DNA from: Escherichia coli
Lineage (GTDB): Bacteria > Pseudomonadota > Gammaproteobacteria > Enterobacterales > Enterobacteriaceae
Assembly: GCF_050320075.1 (NCBI RefSeq)
Contig: NZ_CP190021.1
Length of the DNA: 64,000 bases
Strand: one strand, 5' to 3'
A program made the translations under genes and the position numbers. The stretch's first letter is position 1. Each line of letters begins with the position of its first letter. Of this stretch, positions 2,573-43,526 are shown one piece after another. Under the pieces are notes generated by a model. That model was not told the origin of the DNA, searched no databases, and saw only the letters and a list, made by a program, of their open reading frames with translations.

Positions 2573-3421
2573 ATGAATAATGATGAGCTGGCCACCAGAC
2601 GTGCGCAGGCGATTGCCGAAGACAGGTGTTTCTCGAAAGGACGTTTGCGCGATGAATTCAGAATGAAACCAGCCCCCGGTGCTGAGCCGGTTAAGTGGTA
2701 TAAAAACACTTATGGTGGCAGGTTCGCTGTATACCGAATTGCAGACTGTGTTCCGATGCGTGAGAAACGCCCTCTGACGAGTAAACAACAGCTGGCTGGC
2801 CAGCGACTTTCCGTTTTATCCAGACTTAACAGCACCAGTGGCCGGATGGCACGGCAGGCATATGACTGGCTGAGTCTGGCACCGCTCTTTCTGGATACTG
2901 AAACGACAGGACTGGATAATACCGCGGAAGCCCTGGAAATCGGCCTGACCGATGCGGCCGGTCAGGTGGTATTTGAAACCAGGCTGAAGCCCACGGTCGC
3001 CATCGGGGCGCAGGCCGCCGCTGTGCATGGTATCAGCGAGCAGGCTCTCTGCGGCGCACCATCATGGACAGATGTGGCGCGGCAACTGCGTCATGCAATC
3101 GGGGACCGACCAGTAATTATCTTTAATGCCCGGTTCGACATCCGCATTCTGAAACAGACTGCTGCCGCACATAGCGATCCGGCTGACTGGCTGGAAGAAC
3201 TGACGGTATATTGTGCGATGGAGCTGGCTGCAGGATATTATGGGGCCACCAACCGCTATGGCACGATTTCACTGGCCTGTGCTGCCAGCCAGGCCGGACT
3301 GACCTGGGAAGGGCAGGCACACTCAGCGATCGCCGACGCACGGATGACGGCAGGGGTGGTAAACGCTATTGCTGCATATCATCTGGAACTGCTGCAGGAA
3401 CAGGCACGGCTGAAAATCTGA
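2573..3421 (+). CDS. yacC: DnaQ-like DEDDh 3'-5' exonuclease domain protein (YacC)
   Basis: 282-aa ORF with Exo I motif (LFLDTETTGLD) and a C-terminal H-x4-D motif (HSAIAD). Confidence 0.7.
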   Translation: MNNDELATRRAQAIAEDRCFSKGRLRDEFRMKPAPGAEPVKWYKNTYGGRFAVYRIADCVPMREKRPLTSKQQLAGQRLSVLSRLNSTSGRMARQAYDWLSLAPLFLDTETTGLDNTAEALEIGLTDAAGQVVFETRLKPTVAIGAQAAAVHGISEQALCGAPSWTDVARQLRHAIGDRPVIIFNARFDIRILKQTAAAHSDPADWLEELTVYCAMELAAGYYGATNRYGTISLACAASQAGLTWEGQAHSAIADARMTAGVVNAIAAYHLELLQEQARLKI

Positions 3422-3492
3422 CCGCCTGGCCTGTATACCGCAATCATTTACGTTATCCAGACGTAAATCCGCCGCTTGTTGCTGTCAGCATG

Positions 3493-3524
3493 TTAATGCT
3501 AATGTATGTGTACATTAGCATTAA
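3493..3524. repeat. Perfect 14-bp inverted repeat with 4-bp spacer (TTAATGCTAATGTA-TGTG-TACATTAGCATTAA)
   Basis: Read directly from sequence between yacC and the Tn21-type IR. Confidence 0.8.
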
Positions 3525-3624
3525 TGAGGGATGATATGTGAGAGACAAAACCAGGGAGGCCATGCGGCTTTTTTTAGGCGGCAGGTGCTACACGGCTGAA
3601 AAACTTGAAAAGGATTATCTGGCT

Positions 3625-3662
3625 GGGGGCACCTCAGAAAACGGAAAATAAAGCACGCTAAG
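3625..3662. mobile_element. Tn21-subfamily 38-bp terminal inverted repeat (IRmer-type)
   Basis: Exact match from memory to GGGGGCACCTCAGAAAACGGAAAATAAAGCACGCTAAG. Confidence 0.85.
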
Positions 3663-3783
3663 GCATAGCTGACCTTGCCAGGCCTGCTTCGCCCTGTAGT
3701 GACGCGATCAACGGGCAGGAAACATTCCCCTTTCGTGCATGGCAGGCGCACACGAGTTCAGACAGCACGGTTTCCATGCGCGC
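3658..3783 (-). pseudogene. merR: merR 3' remnant (last ~41 codons of MerR)
   Basis: Minus-strand translation ends ...[39 protein letters not shown], matching the Tn21/Tn501 MerR C-terminus; upstream residues are unrelated. Confidence 0.75.
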
Positions 3784-4960
3784 CGTCGTGCGGAGATCAT
3801 CAGTCCGTTGGCGCAGTCGGAGACGGTCGGGCACGAAGCGGCCGATATGGCGGCTCAGGCGCTGGGCTTGTCTCGGCGCCAGGTATACGTTCTGATCCGG
3901 CGTGCCCGGCAAGGCAGCGGCCTCGTGACGGATCTGGTGCCCGGCCAGTCCGGTGGAGGTAAAGGTAAGGGGCGCTTGCCGGAACCGGTCGAGCGCGTCA
4001 TCCACGAGCTACTGCAAAAGCGGTTCCTGACCAAGCAGAAGCGCAGCCTAGCGGCCTTTCACCGCGAAGTCACTCAGGTGTGCAAGGCTCAAAAACTGCG
4101 AGTGCCGGCGCGCAATACCGTGGCCTTACGGATCGCTAGCCTTGACCCGCGCAAGGTCATCCGCCGGCGGGAAGGCCAGGATGCCGCTCGTGACCTACAA
4201 GGTGTGGGCGGCGAGCCTCCTGCCGTGACCGCGCCGCTGGAGCAGGTGCAGATAGACCATACGGTCATCGACCTGATCGTGGTCGATGACCGCGACCGGC
4301 AACCTATTGGCCGCCCGTACCTGACCCTCGCCATCGACGTGTTCACCCGCTGCGTGCTCGGCATGGTCGTCACGCTGGAAGCGCCGTCTGCCGTTTCGGT
4401 TGGCCTGTGCCTCGTGCATGTCGCCTGCGACAAGCGCCCTTGGCTGGAAGGACTGAACGTGGAAATGGATTGGCAGATGAGCGGCAAGCCCTTGCTGCTC
4501 TACCTAGACAACGCGGCCGAGTTCAAGAGCGAGGCCCTGCGCCGGGGTTGCGAGCAGCATGGCATCCGGCTGGACTATCGCCCGCTGGGACAGCCGCACT
4601 ATGGCGGCATCGTGGAACGGATCATCGGCACGGCGATGCAGATGATTCACGACGAACTGCCGGGAACGACCTTCTCCAACCCTGACCAGCGCGGCGACTA
4701 CGATTCCGAAAACAAGGCCGCCCTGACGCTGCGCGAGCTAGAGCGCTGGCTCACATTGGCGGTCGGCACCTACCACGGTTCGGTGCACAACGGCCTGCTC
4801 CAACCGCCGGCCGCGCGCTGGGCCGAGGCCGTGGCGCGTGTCGGCGTACCGGCCGTCGTCACACGCGCTACTTCGTTCCTGGTCGATTTTCTGCCGATCC
4901 TCCGGCGCACGCTGACCCGCACCGGCTTTGTCATCGACCACATCCACTACTACGCCGATG
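3781..4960 (+). pseudogene. tniA: tniA (Tn402/Tn5053-type transposase) fragment, 5' end replaced and 3' end cut by IS26
   Basis: ORF 3739-4977 matches TniA from memory from [19 protein letters not shown] onward; the last codons (GHCCK) are read from the IS26 terminal repeat. Confidence 0.7.
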
Positions 4961-5780
4961 GGCACTGTTGCAAATAGTCGGTGGTGATAAACTTATCATC
5001 CCCTTTTGCTGATGGAGCTGCACATGAACCCATTCAAAGGCCGGCATTTTCAGCGTGACATCATTCTGTGGGCCGTACGCTGGTACTGCAAATACGGCAT
5101 CAGTTACCGTGAGCTGCAGGAGATGCTGGCTGAACGCGGAGTGAATGTCGATCACTCCACGATTTACCGCTGGGTTCAGCGTTATGCGCCTGAAATGGAA
5201 AAACGGCTGCGCTGGTACTGGCGTAACCCTTCCGATCTTTGCCCGTGGCACATGGATGAAACCTACGTGAAGGTCAATGGCCGCTGGGCGTATCTGTACC
5301 GGGCCGTCGACAGCCGGGGCCGCACTGTCGATTTTTATCTCTCCTCCCGTCGTAACAGCAAAGCTGCATACCGGTTTCTGGGTAAAATCCTCAACAACGT
5401 GAAGAAGTGGCAGATCCCGCGATTCATCAACACGGATAAAGCGCCCGCCTATGGTCGCGCGCTTGCTCTGCTCAAACGCGAAGGCCGGTGCCCGTCTGAC
5501 GTTGAACACCGACAGATTAAGTACCGGAACAACGTGATTGAATGCGATCATGGCAAACTGAAACGGATAATCGACGCCACGCTGGGATTTAAATCCATGA
5601 AGACGGCTTACGCCACCATCAAAGGTATTGAGGTGATGCGTGCACTACGCAAAGGCCAGGCCTCAGCATTTTATTATGGTGATCCCCTGGGCGAAATGCG
5701 CCTGGTAAGCAGAGTTTTTGAAATGTAAGGCCTTTGAATAAGACAAAAGGCTGCCTCATCGCTAACTTTGCAACAGTGCC
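4961..5780 (+). mobile_element. IS26 copy 1 (820 bp)
   Basis: GGCACTGTTGCAAA terminal repeats at both ends; internal tnpA. Confidence 0.95.
5006..5728 (+). CDS. tnpA: IS26 transposase Tnp26
   Basis: 240-aa ORF MNPFKGRHFQRDIILWAVRWYCKYGISYREL... Confidence 0.95.
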   Translation: MLMELHMNPFKGRHFQRDIILWAVRWYCKYGISYRELQEMLAERGVNVDHSTIYRWVQRYAPEMEKRLRWYWRNPSDLCPWHMDETYVKVNGRWAYLYRAVDSRGRTVDFYLSSRRNSKAAYRFLGKILNNVKKWQIPRFINTDKAPAYGRALALLKREGRCPSDVEHRQIKYRNNVIECDHGKLKRIIDATLGFKSMKTAYATIKGIEVMRALRKGQASAFYYGDPLGEMRLVSRVFEM

Positions 5781-5903
5781 GGATTATGTCCACGATAAGC
5801 ACCTGGGTCGATTCCTGGGAGGCGGCCATGAGGGTAGGGAAGCGCCGTCCCGTCAAGTCAGCGTAATGCTCTGCCAGTGTTACAACCAATTAACCAATTC
5901 TGA

Positions 5904-6719
5904 TTAGAAAAACTCATCGAGCATCAAATGAAACTGCAATTTATTCATATCAGGATTATCAATACCATATTTTTGAAAAAGCCGTTTCTGTAATGAAGGA
6001 GAAAACTCACCGAGGCAGTTCCATAGGATGGCAAGATCCTGGTATCGGTCTGCGATTCCGACTCGTCCAACATCAATACAACCTATTAATTTCCCCTCGT
6101 CAAAAATAAGGTTATCAAGTGAGAAATCACCATGAGTGACGACTGAATCCGGTGAGAATGGCAAAAGCTTATGCATTTCTTTCCAGACTTGTTCAACAGG
6201 CCAGCCATTACGCTCGTCATCAAAATCACTCGCATCAACCAAACCGTTATTCATTCGTGATTGCGCCTGAGCGAGACGAAATACGCGATCGCTGTTAAAA
6301 GGACAATTACAAACAGGAATCGAATGCAACCGGCGCAGGAACACTGCCAGCGCATCAACAATATTTTCACCTGAATCAGGATATTCTTCTAATACCTGGA
6401 ATGCTGTTTTCCCGGGGATCGCAGTGGTGAGTAACCATGCATCATCAGGAGTACGGATAAAATGCTTGATGGTCGGAAGAGGCATAAATTCCGTCAGCCA
6501 GTTTAGTCTGACCATCTCATCTGTAACATCATTGGCAACGCTACCTTTGCCATGTTTCAGAAACAACTCTGGCGCATCGGGCTTCCCATACAATCGATAG
6601 ATTGTCGCACCTGATTGCCCGACATTATCGCGAGCCCATTTATACCCATATAAATCAGCATCCATGTTGGAATTTAATCGCGGCCTCGAGCAAGACGTTT
6701 CCCGTTGAATATGGCTCAT
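5904..6719 (-). CDS. aph(3')-Ia: Aminoglycoside 3'-phosphotransferase APH(3')-Ia (kanamycin/neomycin resistance)
   Basis: 271-aa ORF MSHIQRETSCSRPRLNSNMDADLYGYKWARDNVGQSGATIYRLYGKP...; flanked by direct IS26 copies (Tn4352-like). Confidence 0.95.
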   Translation of the reverse strand: MSHIQRETSCSRPRLNSNMDADLYGYKWARDNVGQSGATIYRLYGKPDAPELFLKHGKGSVANDVTDEMVRLNWLTEFMPLPTIKHFIRTPDDAWLLTTAIPGKTAFQVLEEYPDSGENIVDALAVFLRRLHSIPVCNCPFNSDRVFRLAQAQSRMNNGLVDASDFDDERNGWPVEQVWKEMHKLLPFSPDSVVTHGDFSLDNLIFDEGKLIGCIDVGRVGIADRYQDLAILWNCLGEFSPSLQKRLFQKYGIDNPDMNKLQFHLMLDEFF

Positions 6720-6806
6720 AACACCCCTTGTATTACTGTTTATGTAAGCAGACAGTTTTATTGTTCATGATGATATATTTTTATCTTGTGCAATGTAACA
6801 TCAGAG

Positions 6807-7626
6807 GGCACTGTTGCAAATAGTCGGTGGTGATAAACTTATCATCCCCTTTTGCTGATGGAGCTGCACATGAACCCATTCAAAGGCCGGCATTTTCAGC
6901 GTGACATCATTCTGTGGGCCGTACGCTGGTACTGCAAATACGGCATCAGTTACCGTGAGCTGCAGGAGATGCTGGCTGAACGCGGAGTGAATGTCGATCA
7001 CTCCACGATTTACCGCTGGGTTCAGCGTTATGCGCCTGAAATGGAAAAACGGCTGCGCTGGTACTGGCGTAACCCTTCCGATCTTTGCCCGTGGCACATG
7101 GATGAAACCTACGTGAAGGTCAATGGCCGCTGGGCGTATCTGTACCGGGCCGTCGACAGCCGGGGCCGCACTGTCGATTTTTATCTCTCCTCCCGTCGTA
7201 ACAGCAAAGCTGCATACCGGTTTCTGGGTAAAATCCTCAACAACGTGAAGAAGTGGCAGATCCCGCGATTCATCAACACGGATAAAGCGCCCGCCTATGG
7301 TCGCGCGCTTGCTCTGCTCAAACGCGAAGGCCGGTGCCCGTCTGACGTTGAACACCGACAGATTAAGTACCGGAACAACGTGATTGAATGCGATCATGGC
7401 AAACTGAAACGGATAATCGGCGCCACGCTGGGATTTAAATCCATGAAGACGGCTTACGCCACCATCAAAGGTATTGAGGTGATGCGTGCACTACGCAAAG
7501 GCCAGGCCTCAGCATTTTATTATGGTGATCCCCTGGGCGAAATGCGCCTGGTAAGCAGAGTTTTTGAAATGTAAGGCCTTTGAATAAGACAAAAGGCTGC
7601 CTCATCGCTAACTTTGCAACAGTGCC
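6807..7626 (+). mobile_element. IS26 copy 2
   Basis: Terminal repeats identified; same orientation as copy 1. Confidence 0.95.
6852..7574 (+). CDS. tnpA: IS26 transposase
   Basis: 240-aa ORF nearly identical to copy 1 (one difference, D vs G near the C-terminus). Confidence 0.95.
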   Translation: MLMELHMNPFKGRHFQRDIILWAVRWYCKYGISYRELQEMLAERGVNVDHSTIYRWVQRYAPEMEKRLRWYWRNPSDLCPWHMDETYVKVNGRWAYLYRAVDSRGRTVDFYLSSRRNSKAAYRFLGKILNNVKKWQIPRFINTDKAPAYGRALALLKREGRCPSDVEHRQIKYRNNVIECDHGKLKRIIGATLGFKSMKTAYATIKGIEVMRALRKGQASAFYYGDPLGEMRLVSRVFEM

Positions 7627-7695
7627 GGATTGAATATAACCGACGTGACTGTTACATTTAGGTGGCTAAACCCGTCAAGCCCTCAGGAGTGAATC

Positions 7696-8601
7696 ATGAC
7701 CGTAGTCACGACCGCCGATACCTCCCAACTGTACGCACTTGCAGCCCGACATGGGCTCAAGCTCCATGGCCCGCTGACTGTCAATGAGCTTGGGCTCGAC
7801 TATAGGATCGTGATCGCCACCGTCGACGATGGACGTCGGTGGGTGCTGCGCATCCCGCGCCGAGCCGAGGTAAGCGCGAAGGTCGAACCAGAGGCGCGGG
7901 TGCTGGCAATGCTCAAGAATCGCCTGCCGTTCGCGGTGCCGGACTGGCGCGTGGCCAACGCCGAGCTCGTTGCCTATCCCATGCTCGAAGACTCGACTGC
8001 GATGGTCATCCAGCCTGGTTCGTCCACGCCCGACTGGGTCGTGCCGCAGGACTCGGAGGTCTTCGCGGAGAGCTTCGCGACCGCGCTCGCCGCCCTGCAT
8101 GCCGTCCCCATTTCCGCCGCCGTGGATGCGGGGATGCTCATCCGTACACCGACGCAGGCCCGTCAGAAGGTGGCCGACGACGTTGACCGCGTCCGACGCG
8201 AGTTCGTGGTGAACGACAAGCGCCTCCACCGGTGGCAGCGCTGGCTCGACGACGATTCGTCGTGGCCAGATTTCTCCGTGGTGGTGCATGGCGATCTCTA
8301 CGTGGGCCATGTGCTCATCGACAACACGGAGCGCGTCAGCGGGATGATCGACTGGAGCGAGGCCCGCGTTGATGACCCTGCCATCGACATGGCCGCGCAC
8401 CTTATGGTCTTTGGTGAAGAGGGGCTCGCGAAGCTCCTCCTCACGTATGAAGCGGCCGGTGGCCGGGTGTGGCCGCGGCTCGCCCACCACATCGCGGAGC
8501 GCCTTGCGTTCGGGGCGGTCACCTACGCACTCTTCGCCCTCGACTCGGGTAACGAAGAGTACCTCGCTGCGGCGAAGGCGCAGCTCGCCGCAGCGGAATG
8601 A
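7696..8601 (+). CDS. mph(A): Macrolide 2'-phosphotransferase Mph(A)
   Basis: 301-aa ORF MTVVTTADTSQLYALAARHGLKLHGPLTVNELGLDYRIV...; high-GC codon usage; followed by mrx and mphR. Confidence 0.95.
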   Translation: MTVVTTADTSQLYALAARHGLKLHGPLTVNELGLDYRIVIATVDDGRRWVLRIPRRAEVSAKVEPEARVLAMLKNRLPFAVPDWRVANAELVAYPMLEDSTAMVIQPGSSTPDWVVPQDSEVFAESFATALAALHAVPISAAVDAGMLIRTPTQARQKVADDVDRVRREFVVNDKRLHRWQRWLDDDSSWPDFSVVVHGDLYVGHVLIDNTERVSGMIDWSEARVDDPAIDMAAHLMVFGEEGLAKLLLTYEAAGGRVWPRLAHHIAERLAFGAVTYALFALDSGNEEYLAAAKAQLAAAE

Positions 8602-12550: not shown

Positions 12551-12816
12551 TTCCAGTCATCCTCCGGCCAGATGAGCTTTCTGAGGCGCTGAAAGTCGGC
12601 GTCAATGAGCTCCTGTCTCTTTATGGCATTCATTGAGGCATAGCCATTTATGGCCAGTTCATGCCAGAAGATCAGCACGGCTCCGGCTTTGGCTGACTCG
12701 CAGAGATAAATCGCGCCCTGGCTGTCCAGATTGCATTCCCGGATGCGTCGTTCCGTAAACCGGGTTAGTTGTTCATAGCTGAGTGAAAACACCCTTTCTT
12801 CATCCATCCTGCACAC
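12547..12816 (-). CDS. Hypothetical protein, first gene of a two-gene operon
   Basis: 89-aa ORF translationally coupled to the truncated downstream gene. Confidence 0.5.
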   Translation of the reverse strand: MCRMDEERVFSLSYEQLTRFTERRIRECNLDSQGAIYLCESAKAGAVLIFWHELAINGYASMNAIKRQELIDADFQRLRKLIWPEDDWK

Positions 12817-18431: not shown

Positions 18432-19358
18432 ATGCCAAACTGGTGCAGTAACCGTATGCATTTTTCTGGTGAACCGGCACAGATTGCTGAGATTAAACGA
18501 CTGGCCAGTGGTGCCGTCACACCGTTTTATCGCCGCGCCACAAATGAAGGTATTCAGCTGTTTCTGGCCGGAAGTGCCGGACTTCTGCAGACCACTGAAG
18601 ATGTGTGGTTTGAACCGTGCCCCGGACTGACGGCTGCCGGACGTGGCGTTGTATCGCCGGAGAATATCGCGTTCACCCGCTGGCTGACACACCTGCAGAA
18701 CGGTGTACTGCTGGATGAGCAAAACTGCCTGATGCTGCATGAACTCTGGCTGCAGAGCGGTACTGGCCAGCGTCGCTGGGAAGGATTACCGGACGATGTC
18801 AGGGATACCATCACCGCGCTTTTCACCGCAAAAAGAGGTGACTGGTGTGGCTTCTGGAGTAACGAGGATGTATCGGTGTGGTGGAACCGTCTGTGTGACA
18901 ACGTACTGCCGGAAAAAACCATGCCGTTTGACCTGCTGACGGTTCTGCCCACCCGCCTTGATGTTGAAGTGAATGGCTTTAACGGTGGTGTTCTGAACGG
19001 TGTTCCTTCTGCATATCACTGGTATACCGAACAGTATGGCGTGAAGTGGCCTTGTGGGTATGACCTGAATATCAGCAGTCAGGGAGACAACTTCATTCAG
19101 GTTGATTTCGACACGCCGTGGTGTCAGCCGGAAAGCGACGTTATTGCAGAATTAAGCCGCCGTTTCAGCTGCACGCTGGAGCACTGGTATGCCGAACAGG
19201 GCTGTGATTTCTGTGGCTGGCAGTTGTATGAGCGCGGAGAGCTCGTTGATGTGCTGTGGGGGGAGCTGGAATGGTCTTCCCCGACAGATGACGATGAGCT
19301 GCCGGAAGTCACCGGACCTGCGTGGATAGTCGACAAGGTGGCGCATTATGGCGGATGA
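18432..19358 (+). CDS. Conserved leading-region protein of unknown function (cysteine/tryptophan-rich)
   Basis: ATG at 18432 with GGAGAA RBS (MPNWCSNRMHFSGEP...); track ORF starts earlier at 18387. Confidence 0.65.
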   Translation: MPNWCSNRMHFSGEPAQIAEIKRLASGAVTPFYRRATNEGIQLFLAGSAGLLQTTEDVWFEPCPGLTAAGRGVVSPENIAFTRWLTHLQNGVLLDEQNCLMLHELWLQSGTGQRRWEGLPDDVRDTITALFTAKRGDWCGFWSNEDVSVWWNRLCDNVLPEKTMPFDLLTVLPTRLDVEVNGFNGGVLNGVPSAYHWYTEQYGVKWPCGYDLNISSQGDNFIQVDFDTPWCQPESDVIAELSRRFSCTLEHWYAEQGCDFCGWQLYERGELVDVLWGELEWSSPTDDDELPEVTGPAWIVDKVAHYGG

Positions 19359-23620: not shown

Positions 23621-24125
23621 CTTCGGCTCCCGGCTGCCTGGCGGCATCCGGTCGTCAGGCCCGACTCCGACAGGCAGCTGCTGGCGCACCCGCCAGTCTC
23701 CGCCGAACCCGCTGGCGCGGTTTCGGGCTGCCGCTACGGTCCGATGCGTGAAAACCCGGCTTGCAGCGACCGTTCCGGTCGCGCCGCCCCTGTCGCGCCG
23801 TGACCTGCGCTCCCTGCACACCTGACGGTGTGTGAGGAAACTGCGCCTGATGGCGCAGCAGTCTTCCCTCCTGCCACCACCCCTGCGGCCTGTTTCCCGC
23901 TGTGGACTTTCCGGGGGGCAGACGTAACCCCCTCCCGTTCCATCTGTCCAGGGTGAGATGCACCGGCCACAAAATTTTTAGCCATGAACCCGGCTAAAAA
24001 TTTTGCGTCCGCCCCCGGACAGCTGTCCCGTGAGGCGGTAAACGGGCCCCCATCGGAAAGGTCCACTGCGGGGAGAAACCCCTGTGAAGTGGACGGCAGG
24101 AGGAGCTTTCGCTCCTCTGAAGGGG
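23621..24125. repeat. Leading-region repeat family B, copy 1 (~505 bp), candidate ssDNA promoter upstream of ssb
   Basis: Highly similar to 29964-30465 and partly to 33013-33345; contains a 14-bp perfect hairpin CAAAATTTTTAGCC-N8-GGCTAAAAATTTTG. Confidence 0.65.
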
Positions 24126-42996: not shown

Positions 42997-43472
42997 CGGG
43001 CAACACGGCGGCAGGTTTTCTGCCGCCGCTTTGTTGCGAAGGCTGACCTCATTGCGCCCTTTCTTCTTCAATGAAGCGTATCCGGTATTGTTTCATTTCC
43101 CCTGAAGCCGATTAGCTCCAGCCGAATGCCTTTGCCATCCGGGGCCACGTTCTGCATTTCGCAGATACCACGTCGGGTCATGAGTGTGAAGGCTGTCATT
43201 GCCAGCATGGCTAACGCATTTTCCTCGCTTCCGCTGCGTTTCTCGAGAGCATCGGCAATTTATTCTATGCTCCCCACCTGAAAGCAAGAGTCGAATTCTT
43301 TACTCCACTTTTCTGACATCGGATTTTCTCTCTGTATTTATGGGTAGTTATCGAACTGAATGTGCCAGTTTTTTCAGGAGACGGCAAAGTTGAGATGGTT
43401 GGTTCTGATTCAAAGCATGAGTTTCCCCGGTGTGACGGGCATGTCGGGCGGATTTTGAGAAACAACAGATGT

Positions 43473-43503
43473 AAAAAAACCGACTGGTGAGGTCGGTTTT
43501 TTT
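43473..43503. terminator. Bidirectional rho-independent terminator candidate (A7-ACCGAC-loop-GTCGGT-T7)
   Basis: Read from sequence. Confidence 0.55.
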
Positions 43504-43526
43504 ACTGTTCCGTTACAGAGTGGGTG

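Follow-up and report, generated by a model that had tools for sequence, protein, structure and literature searches.

The window, by which is meant the whole 64,000-nt stretch of DNA analysed here, contains a perfect palindrome between yacC (with repZ, yacA, and yacB further upstream) and the terminal inverted repeat (IR) of a Tn21-type transposon. The palindrome's arms, at 3493–3506 (TTAATGCTAATGTA) and 3511–3524 (TACATTAGCATTAA), are 100% complementary and enclose the spacer TGTG, giving a 14+4+14 arrangement. The palindrome starts 72 nt past the end of yacC and lies 102 nt from the IR, much as the first-pass annotation had described it. The features of the locus, some of them predictions whose grounds are given below, are as follows.

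2573–3421, + strand: yacC-like 3'-5' exonuclease gene (282 aa), the upstream neighbour, outside the module described below; from the list of open reading frames and the ColIb-P9 annotation.
3476–3481, + strand: predicted yadA −35 element, TTGTTG, with an 18-nt spacer to the −10 element; suggested by the enrichment of TTGnnn at this position.
3493–3524, no strand assigned: upstream palindrome, 32 bp, TTAATGCTAATGTA TGTG TACATTAGCATTAA; upstream member of the pair flanking yadA and proposed operator.
3500–3505, + strand: predicted yadA −10 element, TAATGT, within the left arm; suggested by comparison of modules.
About 3512, + strand: predicted transcription start, at the beginning of the right arm; placed from the −10 position.
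3526–3531, + strand: GAGGGA, resembling a Shine-Dalgarno sequence, 6 nt upstream of the GTG; read from the sequence, with similar purine runs in other modules.
3538–3625, + strand: 5' remnant of yadA, 29 codons from GTG 3538 (the RefSeq start is ATG 3562), ended by the transposon.
3626–3663, + strand: Tn21-type 38-bp terminal IR (GGGGCACCTCAGAAAACGG...), interrupting yadA; the junction is ambiguous by 1 nt (3625/3626).

The IR at 3626 is identified as Tn21-type by its resemblance to the Tn21 IR sequence. It opens a resistance insertion (3626–8601) that we take to comprise the mer-end IR of Tn21; a merR 3' fragment fused to a tniA-like open reading frame (3739–4977); two IS26-type transposase genes (5006–5728 and 6852–7574) flanking an aph(3')-Ia-like gene (5904–6719, − strand); and, after the second transposase gene, an Mph(A)-like open reading frame (7696–8601). 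These gene identities come from translations of the open reading frames.

The palindrome is AT-rich and unlike a terminator, as had been noted at first reading: its arms contain 21% G+C, no T-run follows on the 3' side, and a scan of 3200–3800 returned no intrinsic terminator. (A generic promoter scan returned an unrelated promoter-like match on the minus strand only.) Of 30 randomisations of the window under a first-order Markov model, 2 produced a perfect inverted repeat with arms of 14 bp or longer and a loop of at most 10 nt, so that on chance alone the palindrome is only suggestive; it is considered non-random because its sequence is conserved across plasmids. Neither further copies nor half-sites beyond chance expectation were found elsewhere in the 64-kb window. 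Other inverted repeats are present, two of them likewise perfect over 14 bp: that at 43471–43505 (AAAAAAACCGACTGGTGAGGTCGGTTTTTTT) is a canonical bidirectional intrinsic terminator, and that at 23970–24005 (AAAATTTTTAGCC-N8-GGCTAAAAATTTT) has AT-rich ends. An 8-bp inverted repeat (ATTTACGT-N7-ACGTAAAT, 3446–3468) lies 25 nt past the yacC stop codon; at the equivalent position a Klebsiella plasmid carries a different hairpin, AAAATCAG...CTGATTTT, just before its own palindrome.

A megablast search with 3380–3625 matched 1,134 plasmid records. Among these is ColIb-P9, an intact IncI1 backbone without the resistance insertion, which is 100% identical through 3625, where homology stops at the transposon junction. 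This speaks to the check proposed at the outset, namely conservation in IncI1 backbones lacking the insertion: the sequence is identical there, and the lack of conservation suggested as a refutation is not what is found. The ColIb-P9 sequence also identifies the interrupted DNA as a small gene, yadA, annotated as 149 aa; an upstream GTG start would give 157 aa. The upstream GTG is the more likely start, because substitutions relative to a Klebsiella homologue are codon-like from that position on and because other members have ATG there (for example module L008, at the position equivalent to window GTG 3538). On the 3' side of the yadA stop codon, ColIb-P9 has a second copy of the palindrome, TTAATGTTAATGTATGCATACATTAGCATTAA.

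In the window, a search of all 64 kb found neither the 3' part of yadA nor the downstream copy. The window palindrome is thus the relic of a disrupted module, of which the upstream copy, the predicted promoter, and 29 yadA codons are left. The same yadA::Tn21 junction is common to 95 PLSDB records. The first-pass annotation had also raised the possibility of a recombination site that drew in the transposon. Transposons or insertion sequences have truncated yadA in different plasmids at codons 14, 28/29, and 59, at no fixed distance from the palindrome, and nothing indicates that these insertions are tied to the palindrome itself.

The arrangement of palindrome, ribosome-binding site, open reading frame, and palindrome recurs widely. 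The sequence TTAATGCTAATGTA-YGYR-TACATTAGCATTAA stands on both sides of a yadA gene of 157–160 aa in all eight loci first examined, and sixteen such modules were tabulated. In these sixteen, 10–16 nt separate the upstream copy from the start codon, and this copy adjoins the Shine-Dalgarno sequence. On the other side, the gap between stop codon and downstream copy is 0–33 nt (37 nt in ColIb-P9), and in the Photobacterium module (L006) the two overlap. The copies are 504–556 bp apart, centre to centre, with no evident phasing. A tblastn search found YadA homologues in 3,633 plasmid records. The module groups examined were pSLT-like IncF, IncHI1A, IncFII(K), IncFIB, IncX1, and the Photobacterium plasmid, along with contigs from Citrobacter, Enterobacter, and Xenorhabdus and an Alteromonadaceae metagenome-assembled genome (MAG); among these groups, bracketing of yadA by palindromes holds in nearly every module. 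The backbones that carry modules are unrelated: IncI1, IncF, IncHI, IncX, small Rep/Mob plasmids, and the Photobacterium plasmid.

Sequence comparisons set the limits of the module at the palindromes. The homologue on a Klebsiella IncHI1B/FIB plasmid has 79% DNA identity and both palindromes, and its homology with IncI1 runs from the outer edge of the left palindrome to the outer edge of the right one. Moreover, several megablast matches start exactly at 3493. With its unrelated contexts and with homology ending at the sites, the yadA unit is a site-bounded module. Within it, arm identity stays at 90% or more even where the YadA proteins share just 43–52%. Seventy half-sites give the consensus TTAATGCTAATGTAYG, in which T8, A9, and A14 never vary and G6, G12, and G16 hardly do. 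The centre, YGYR, varies by transitions only, and a 14-bp alternating purine-pyrimidine tract is thereby kept. In the enterobacterial group, one-arm substitutions are common and uncompensated, with no bias toward G.U over A.C on the sense strand. The absence of such a bias argues that the half-sites are conserved as sequence rather than as a stem, which is the expectation for duplex recognition by a symmetric protein.

The palindrome therefore belongs to yadA, the only gene consistently linked to it, and not to the yac operon. An operator bound by the YacA/YacB toxin-antitoxin complex, as the first-pass annotation had suggested, is very improbable. Proximity is what recommends it: the site is 72 nt past yacC, and in one IncF plasmid (L110) yacC reads through the palindrome. 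However, the site lies downstream of the operon that it would control, the yacA promoter has a different and unrelated palindrome, and the motif is otherwise absent from the window. Moreover, the fetched neighbourhoods of the IncF, IncHI, IncX, and Photobacterium yadA plasmids show no yacAB genes, and in pSLT-type plasmids the palindrome occupies a divergent intergenic region. The palindrome at the yacA promoter is imperfect (TACTGTGTATATACGTAGTA, 1951–1970), lies just before the yacA start codon at 1986, and probably serves as the true operator of the yacAB toxin-antitoxin promoter; one of its halves resembles a LexA half-site.

The position of the upstream copy suggests what it might do for yadA. 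TTGnnn occurs 16–18 nt before TAATGT (arm positions 8–13) in 13 of the 16 modules, and in 11 of 14 independent lineages. Three control classes, scored in the same way, gave 1/16, 0/16, and 0/16: the upstream copy in the opposite orientation, and the downstream copy in each orientation. The 5' flanks of the upstream copies are otherwise unrelated between backbones. This enrichment over controls argues that the palindrome overlaps a σ70 promoter for yadA, as an operator would. The predicted promoter lies across the left arm, with the −35 element outside and the −10 element inside, and transcription would begin where the right arm does. A dyad spanning −10 to about +12 occupies the classic position of a repressor operator. 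The −10 assignment fits a natural variant in the 28.7-kb plasmid L097 (NZ_AP042589.1), in which a one-base insertion turns the TAATGT stretch into CATAAT, 16 nt after TTGTTT.

What might bind such a site? The YadA family is small: out of 1.84 billion proteins it makes up 175 clusters at 50% identity, with a single domain in every member. Most members are basic, with a pI of 9–9.9, and many arginine and lysine residues are invariant. Searches of YadA against Pfam, NCBIfam, PHROGs, and PADLOC models, and against PDB sequences, returned nothing significant, and no solved structure resembles the family. The AlphaFold model (pLDDT 90.7) is all-helical with a long C-terminal helix; it places an invariant segment, LFGRTGSQ, between two helices to form a helix-GRTGSQ-helix motif. 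Reading sequence and model together, this region could be a helix-turn-helix. YadA is a protein without a known DNA-binding domain, and its standing as the candidate binder derives from linkage and co-variation.

The strongest indirect evidence is this co-variation, seen in ten distant homologues for which contexts were obtained. Palindromes still flank their genes, with the sequence altered in both arms together.

L099: palindrome TAATACTAACGTATCGATACGTTAGTATTA.
L103: palindrome TAAAGTAAACGTATGCGTACGTTTACTTTA.
L108: palindrome GTTAATGTTAATGTATGCGTACATTAACATTAAC.
L101: palindrome ...TAATGGATATATCCATTA...
L100 (334–352 and 995–1015) and L106 (545–567 and 623–639): palindrome of entirely different sequence, GCGTGAGTnACTCACGC.

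In L100, the upstream and downstream copies both carry GCGTGAGTnACTCACGC. (L106 additionally has palindromes of the AGCTAATATACATATGTACTAGCT type nearby.) Because the flanking palindromes of distant homologues change symmetrically, site along with gene, YadA itself is pointed to as the binder. Another candidate was dropped. On Salmonella plasmids of the pSLT type, yadA has a divergent neighbour that encodes a 371-aa "DNA-binding protein" (L003, 1106–2221; L007, 1105–2220), which we take to be TlpA, the thermosensing coiled-coil repressor. The palindrome in L003 and L007 lies 214 nt upstream of the start codon of this TlpA-like gene. It accompanies yadA on plasmids without tlpA, however, so TlpA was set aside as the binder. 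(A search of the accessible literature for the TlpA operator sequence did not find it.)

The palindrome is overwhelmingly a plasmid element. In PLSDB, 4,352 of 72,556 plasmids (about 6%) carry the 32-mer or variants with at most three mismatches, as counted by matches to a 38-nt consensus; none of 50,697 phage records contains the palindrome. In 5,426 complete E. coli genomes it was found at 3,789 places on plasmids and 39 on chromosomes (99% plasmid-borne), every site being counted twice since the query is a palindrome. When one genome per species was scanned for the pattern, 80 loci came back, most of which were discarded as single-arm chance matches in AT-rich genomes, and a few as coming from probably mis-binned contigs. 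The genuine sites are almost exclusively from Enterobacterales, together with the Photobacterium plasmid and the Alteromonadaceae MAG. Each replicon has one to three sites.

Near-confinement to plasmids is evidence against a host transcription factor that controls a chromosomal regulon. More generally, a chromosomally encoded nucleoid protein or transcription factor that binds the palindrome, and is exploited by plasmids, is a quite unlikely explanation. It would account for perfect sites on plasmids that lack yadA (such as L096) and for the many different gene contexts; moreover, the arm can be read as tandem TAATG hexamers, loosely like a Fur array. Nevertheless, chromosomal targets would be expected, and E. 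coli chromosomes hold only 39 of the 3,828 places (each site again counted twice). Furthermore, the palindrome shows no convincing match to the consensus of LexA, CRP, Fur, ArgR, or Xer, and its sequence co-varies with the linked yadA homologue. Separate comparisons with consensus sequences came to the same end: the LexA box CTGT-N8-ACAG is absent from the palindrome, and CRP, Fur, ArgR, TyrR, AcrR, KorA/KorB, Ter, and protelomerase telO sites show partial resemblance, none of it convincing. (The palindrome contains an AcrR half-site-like CATACATT in everted orientation, and its centre, TACGCGTA, resembles telO.) A dispersed palindrome of the REP or MITE kind was likewise rejected, with only one to three sites per replicon and 99% of places on plasmids.

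Together, these results favour a protein-binding site, which the first-pass annotation had thought more likely, and assign it to a different gene. The palindrome would be the promoter-operator of yadA, with YadA as the predicted autorepressor binding both copies, a reading to which we give a probability of about one half. Linkage, co-variation, half-site conservation, and near-absence from chromosomes are the reasons for favouring YadA in this role; from them, and from the promoter overlap, we infer both the operator function and the identity of the binder. In this model, a YadA dimer or tetramer would most likely bind the upstream copy and repress its own promoter. The downstream copy would serve as a second operator, either through looping or as a roadblock or insulator toward neighbouring genes. 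In the window, where the Tn21-type transposon has cut yadA after codon 29 and the downstream copy is missing, an orphan promoter-operator would be left. A more radical proposal, which we regard as improbable, is that palindrome, yadA, and palindrome form a new kind of plasmid module in which YadA, with a new fold, recognises its flanking palindromes as duplex or as extruded hairpin or cruciform, in a role beyond autoregulation: cassette movement or exchange among plasmids, insulation of backbone segments, or plasmid-plasmid interaction via the solitary sites that other replicons carry.

The palindrome might instead act as a single-stranded hairpin: as the end or stabiliser of a yadA or yacC transcript, or, in the transferred DNA strand, as a structure that a protein would recognise in conjugation, for instance in priming or processing. 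This is unlikely, yet several observations lend it some weight. As DNA, the hairpin is predicted to be stable (−12.1 kcal/mol, z = −6.3); as RNA, the stem is the dominant structure of the local fold. The downstream copy has the position typical of a terminator, and in one distant homologue (L098) a canonical terminator takes its place. Furthermore, the symmetric changes in distant homologues preserve pairing, and many solitary copies lie just past the 3' end of a gene. On the other hand, the stem is AT-rich, with no T-run and an empty terminator scan. In L102, L104, and L108, the stop codon is followed first by a canonical terminator (a GC hairpin with a T-run) and only then by the downstream palindrome, so that the downstream copy is not simply a terminator. 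Enterobacterial arms are kept as sequence, and their one-arm changes break pairing without a G.U bias. The upstream copy, moreover, would be only half transcribed if the predicted start is right. Finally, no family in Rfam 15 reaches its gathering threshold against the palindrome; the best match is mir-155 (27 bits versus 56), followed by other miRNA look-alikes. The mir-155 match covers 3490–3527, and the arm starts with UUAAUGCUAAU, the 5' end of miR-155. This resemblance is due to chance and has no biological meaning here.

The promoter-operator reading has familiar parallels. In the lac (O1/O2), gal (OE/OI), and deo systems, too, a dyad overlapping the promoter is accompanied by a second identical site a few hundred base pairs away. 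Here, however, one small gene is bracketed in full, its stop codon lying before the second site, and the repressor is a prediction. The sites of KorA/KorB (IncP-1), StbA (IncW), and ArdK (IncN) are likewise short, conserved, plasmid-specific palindromes at several intergenic places, each bound by a small plasmid-encoded protein; YadA would be the counterpart. The yadA palindrome differs from these in its sequence, in having only one to three copies per replicon, and in spanning many incompatibility groups, and YadA differs from their binding proteins in lacking an HTH, RHH, or ParB signature.

The plasmids concerned include IncI1, IncF virulence and resistance, IncHI, IncX, and Klebsiella IncFIB/HI1B plasmids. 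Full-text literature searches with the palindrome sequence found nothing relevant, and plasmid yadA appears in the searchable literature only in a gene-list mention among ColIb-P9 genes. What is novel is a widespread, undescribed cis-element together with a protein family that lacks a model; the mode of action is probably conventional. Should YadA prove to be a sequence-specific regulator, acting at sites both on the plasmid that encodes it and elsewhere on other plasmids, it would represent an unstudied layer of plasmid backbone regulation and a new DNA-binding fold.

Two identical palindromes also leave their mark on plasmid structure. In L014 (NZ_CP024246.1, 1740–1960), a solo palindrome joins the left flank of an IncI1 upstream copy to the right flank of the downstream copy in L110; because both outer flanks meet at one palindrome, yadA was evidently lost through recombination between the copies. 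(A clean deletion relative to ColIb-P9 does not fit; the structure fits only with an L110-type downstream flank.) In L110 itself (CP099271.1, 1480–1545; an IncF plasmid with yacABC-yadA), the two flanks of the upstream palindrome are exact reverse complements of each other (CATCCCTCA...TGAGGGATG), making a 50-bp perfect palindrome. About 110 nt, comprising the yacC 3' end and the spacer, are deleted, and yacC consequently reads through the palindrome. This rearrangement looks like template switching at a quasipalindrome. Both events are comparable to known quasipalindrome or solo-LTR-like events, L014 retaining one palindrome with both outer flanks and L110 having its left flank converted; such by-products of two identical palindromes do not account for the conservation of sequence. 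The pair can give rise to deletions and to palindrome-extension rearrangements, a point to bear in mind when plasmids are compared or assembled, and it marks a recurrent breakpoint or insertion locus in IncI1 backbones (yadA::Tn21, 95 records).

These events bear on the idea that the palindromes are recombination sites and yadA a mobile cassette, moved by a recombinase, whether of host or plasmid origin, or by YadA. The presence of the module in unrelated backbones, with homology bounded by the palindromes, would be expected of a cassette, as would the loss of yadA between copies in L014 and the palindrome-driven rearrangement in L110; the central 14-bp purine-pyrimidine tract, varying by transitions only, is also compatible. 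Closest among known systems are the pdif modules of Acinetobacter, in which a gene likewise lies between two sites of about 30 bp, in unrelated contexts and with boundaries at the sites. The yadA site, however, is a true palindrome rather than XerC-spacer-XerD, and its upstream copy has a promoter signature. Moreover, a search with a chimeric query found yadA inverted between its palindromes in none of 1,174 IncI1-type records. The arms are unlike XerC/XerD half-sites or attC cores, and no recombinase gene is consistently linked; YadA has just 160 aa and no similarity to catalytic domains. Homologous recombination or slippage between 32-bp repeats could explain one deletion and the shared boundaries, and in L009, L010, and L068 the flanks stay homologous for about 25 nt past the palindrome. 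Since inversion is not seen and the arms are unlike Xer or attC sites, site-specific mobility is a minority reading, and we consider it distinctly unlikely. Individual site types were also rejected: by eye, no register of the arms agrees with the Xer consensus sequences (dif, cer, psi, pdif) at more than 6 of 11 positions, and the centre here is 4 bp rather than 6–8 bp; integron attC cores (RYYYAAC...GTTRRRY) are absent, the palindrome is perfect, and none of the fetched loci has a linked integrase.

Solitary sites make up about a third of those found. Some of them are plainly module remnants: those in L012, L082, and L091 adjoin a truncated yadA, and the left flank of the site in L074 is that of the module in L075. 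For the remaining solitary sites, possible explanations are scars, additional operators acted on in trans, and a function of the element that does not depend on YadA. One perfect site is on a complete 33.8-kb IncX plasmid from which yadA is absent; others lie just after HigBA-like gene pairs or the genes for a Dam-like methyltransferase or endonuclease I.

In Klebsiella and Enterobacter IncFII-type plasmids, the solitary palindrome lies 23 nt past a gene for an SOS-response-associated peptidase (L009, 2000–2031; L010, 2001–2032; L068, 3106–3137), sometimes as the symmetric variant TTAAAGC...GCTTTAA. The palindromes of these three loci are followed by a shared 25-nt stretch, AATTAGCCGTGCATCGTAACTAATT, after which the flanks diverge; homology thus ends past the palindrome and not at it. 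The L097 plasmid has both kinds of site. The palindromes flanking its yadA homologue (18960–19036) are decayed, the upstream one containing the better −10 element, CATAAT; a well-conserved solitary palindrome (12625–12656) lies 6.4 kb away, between pilI and a RepA gene.
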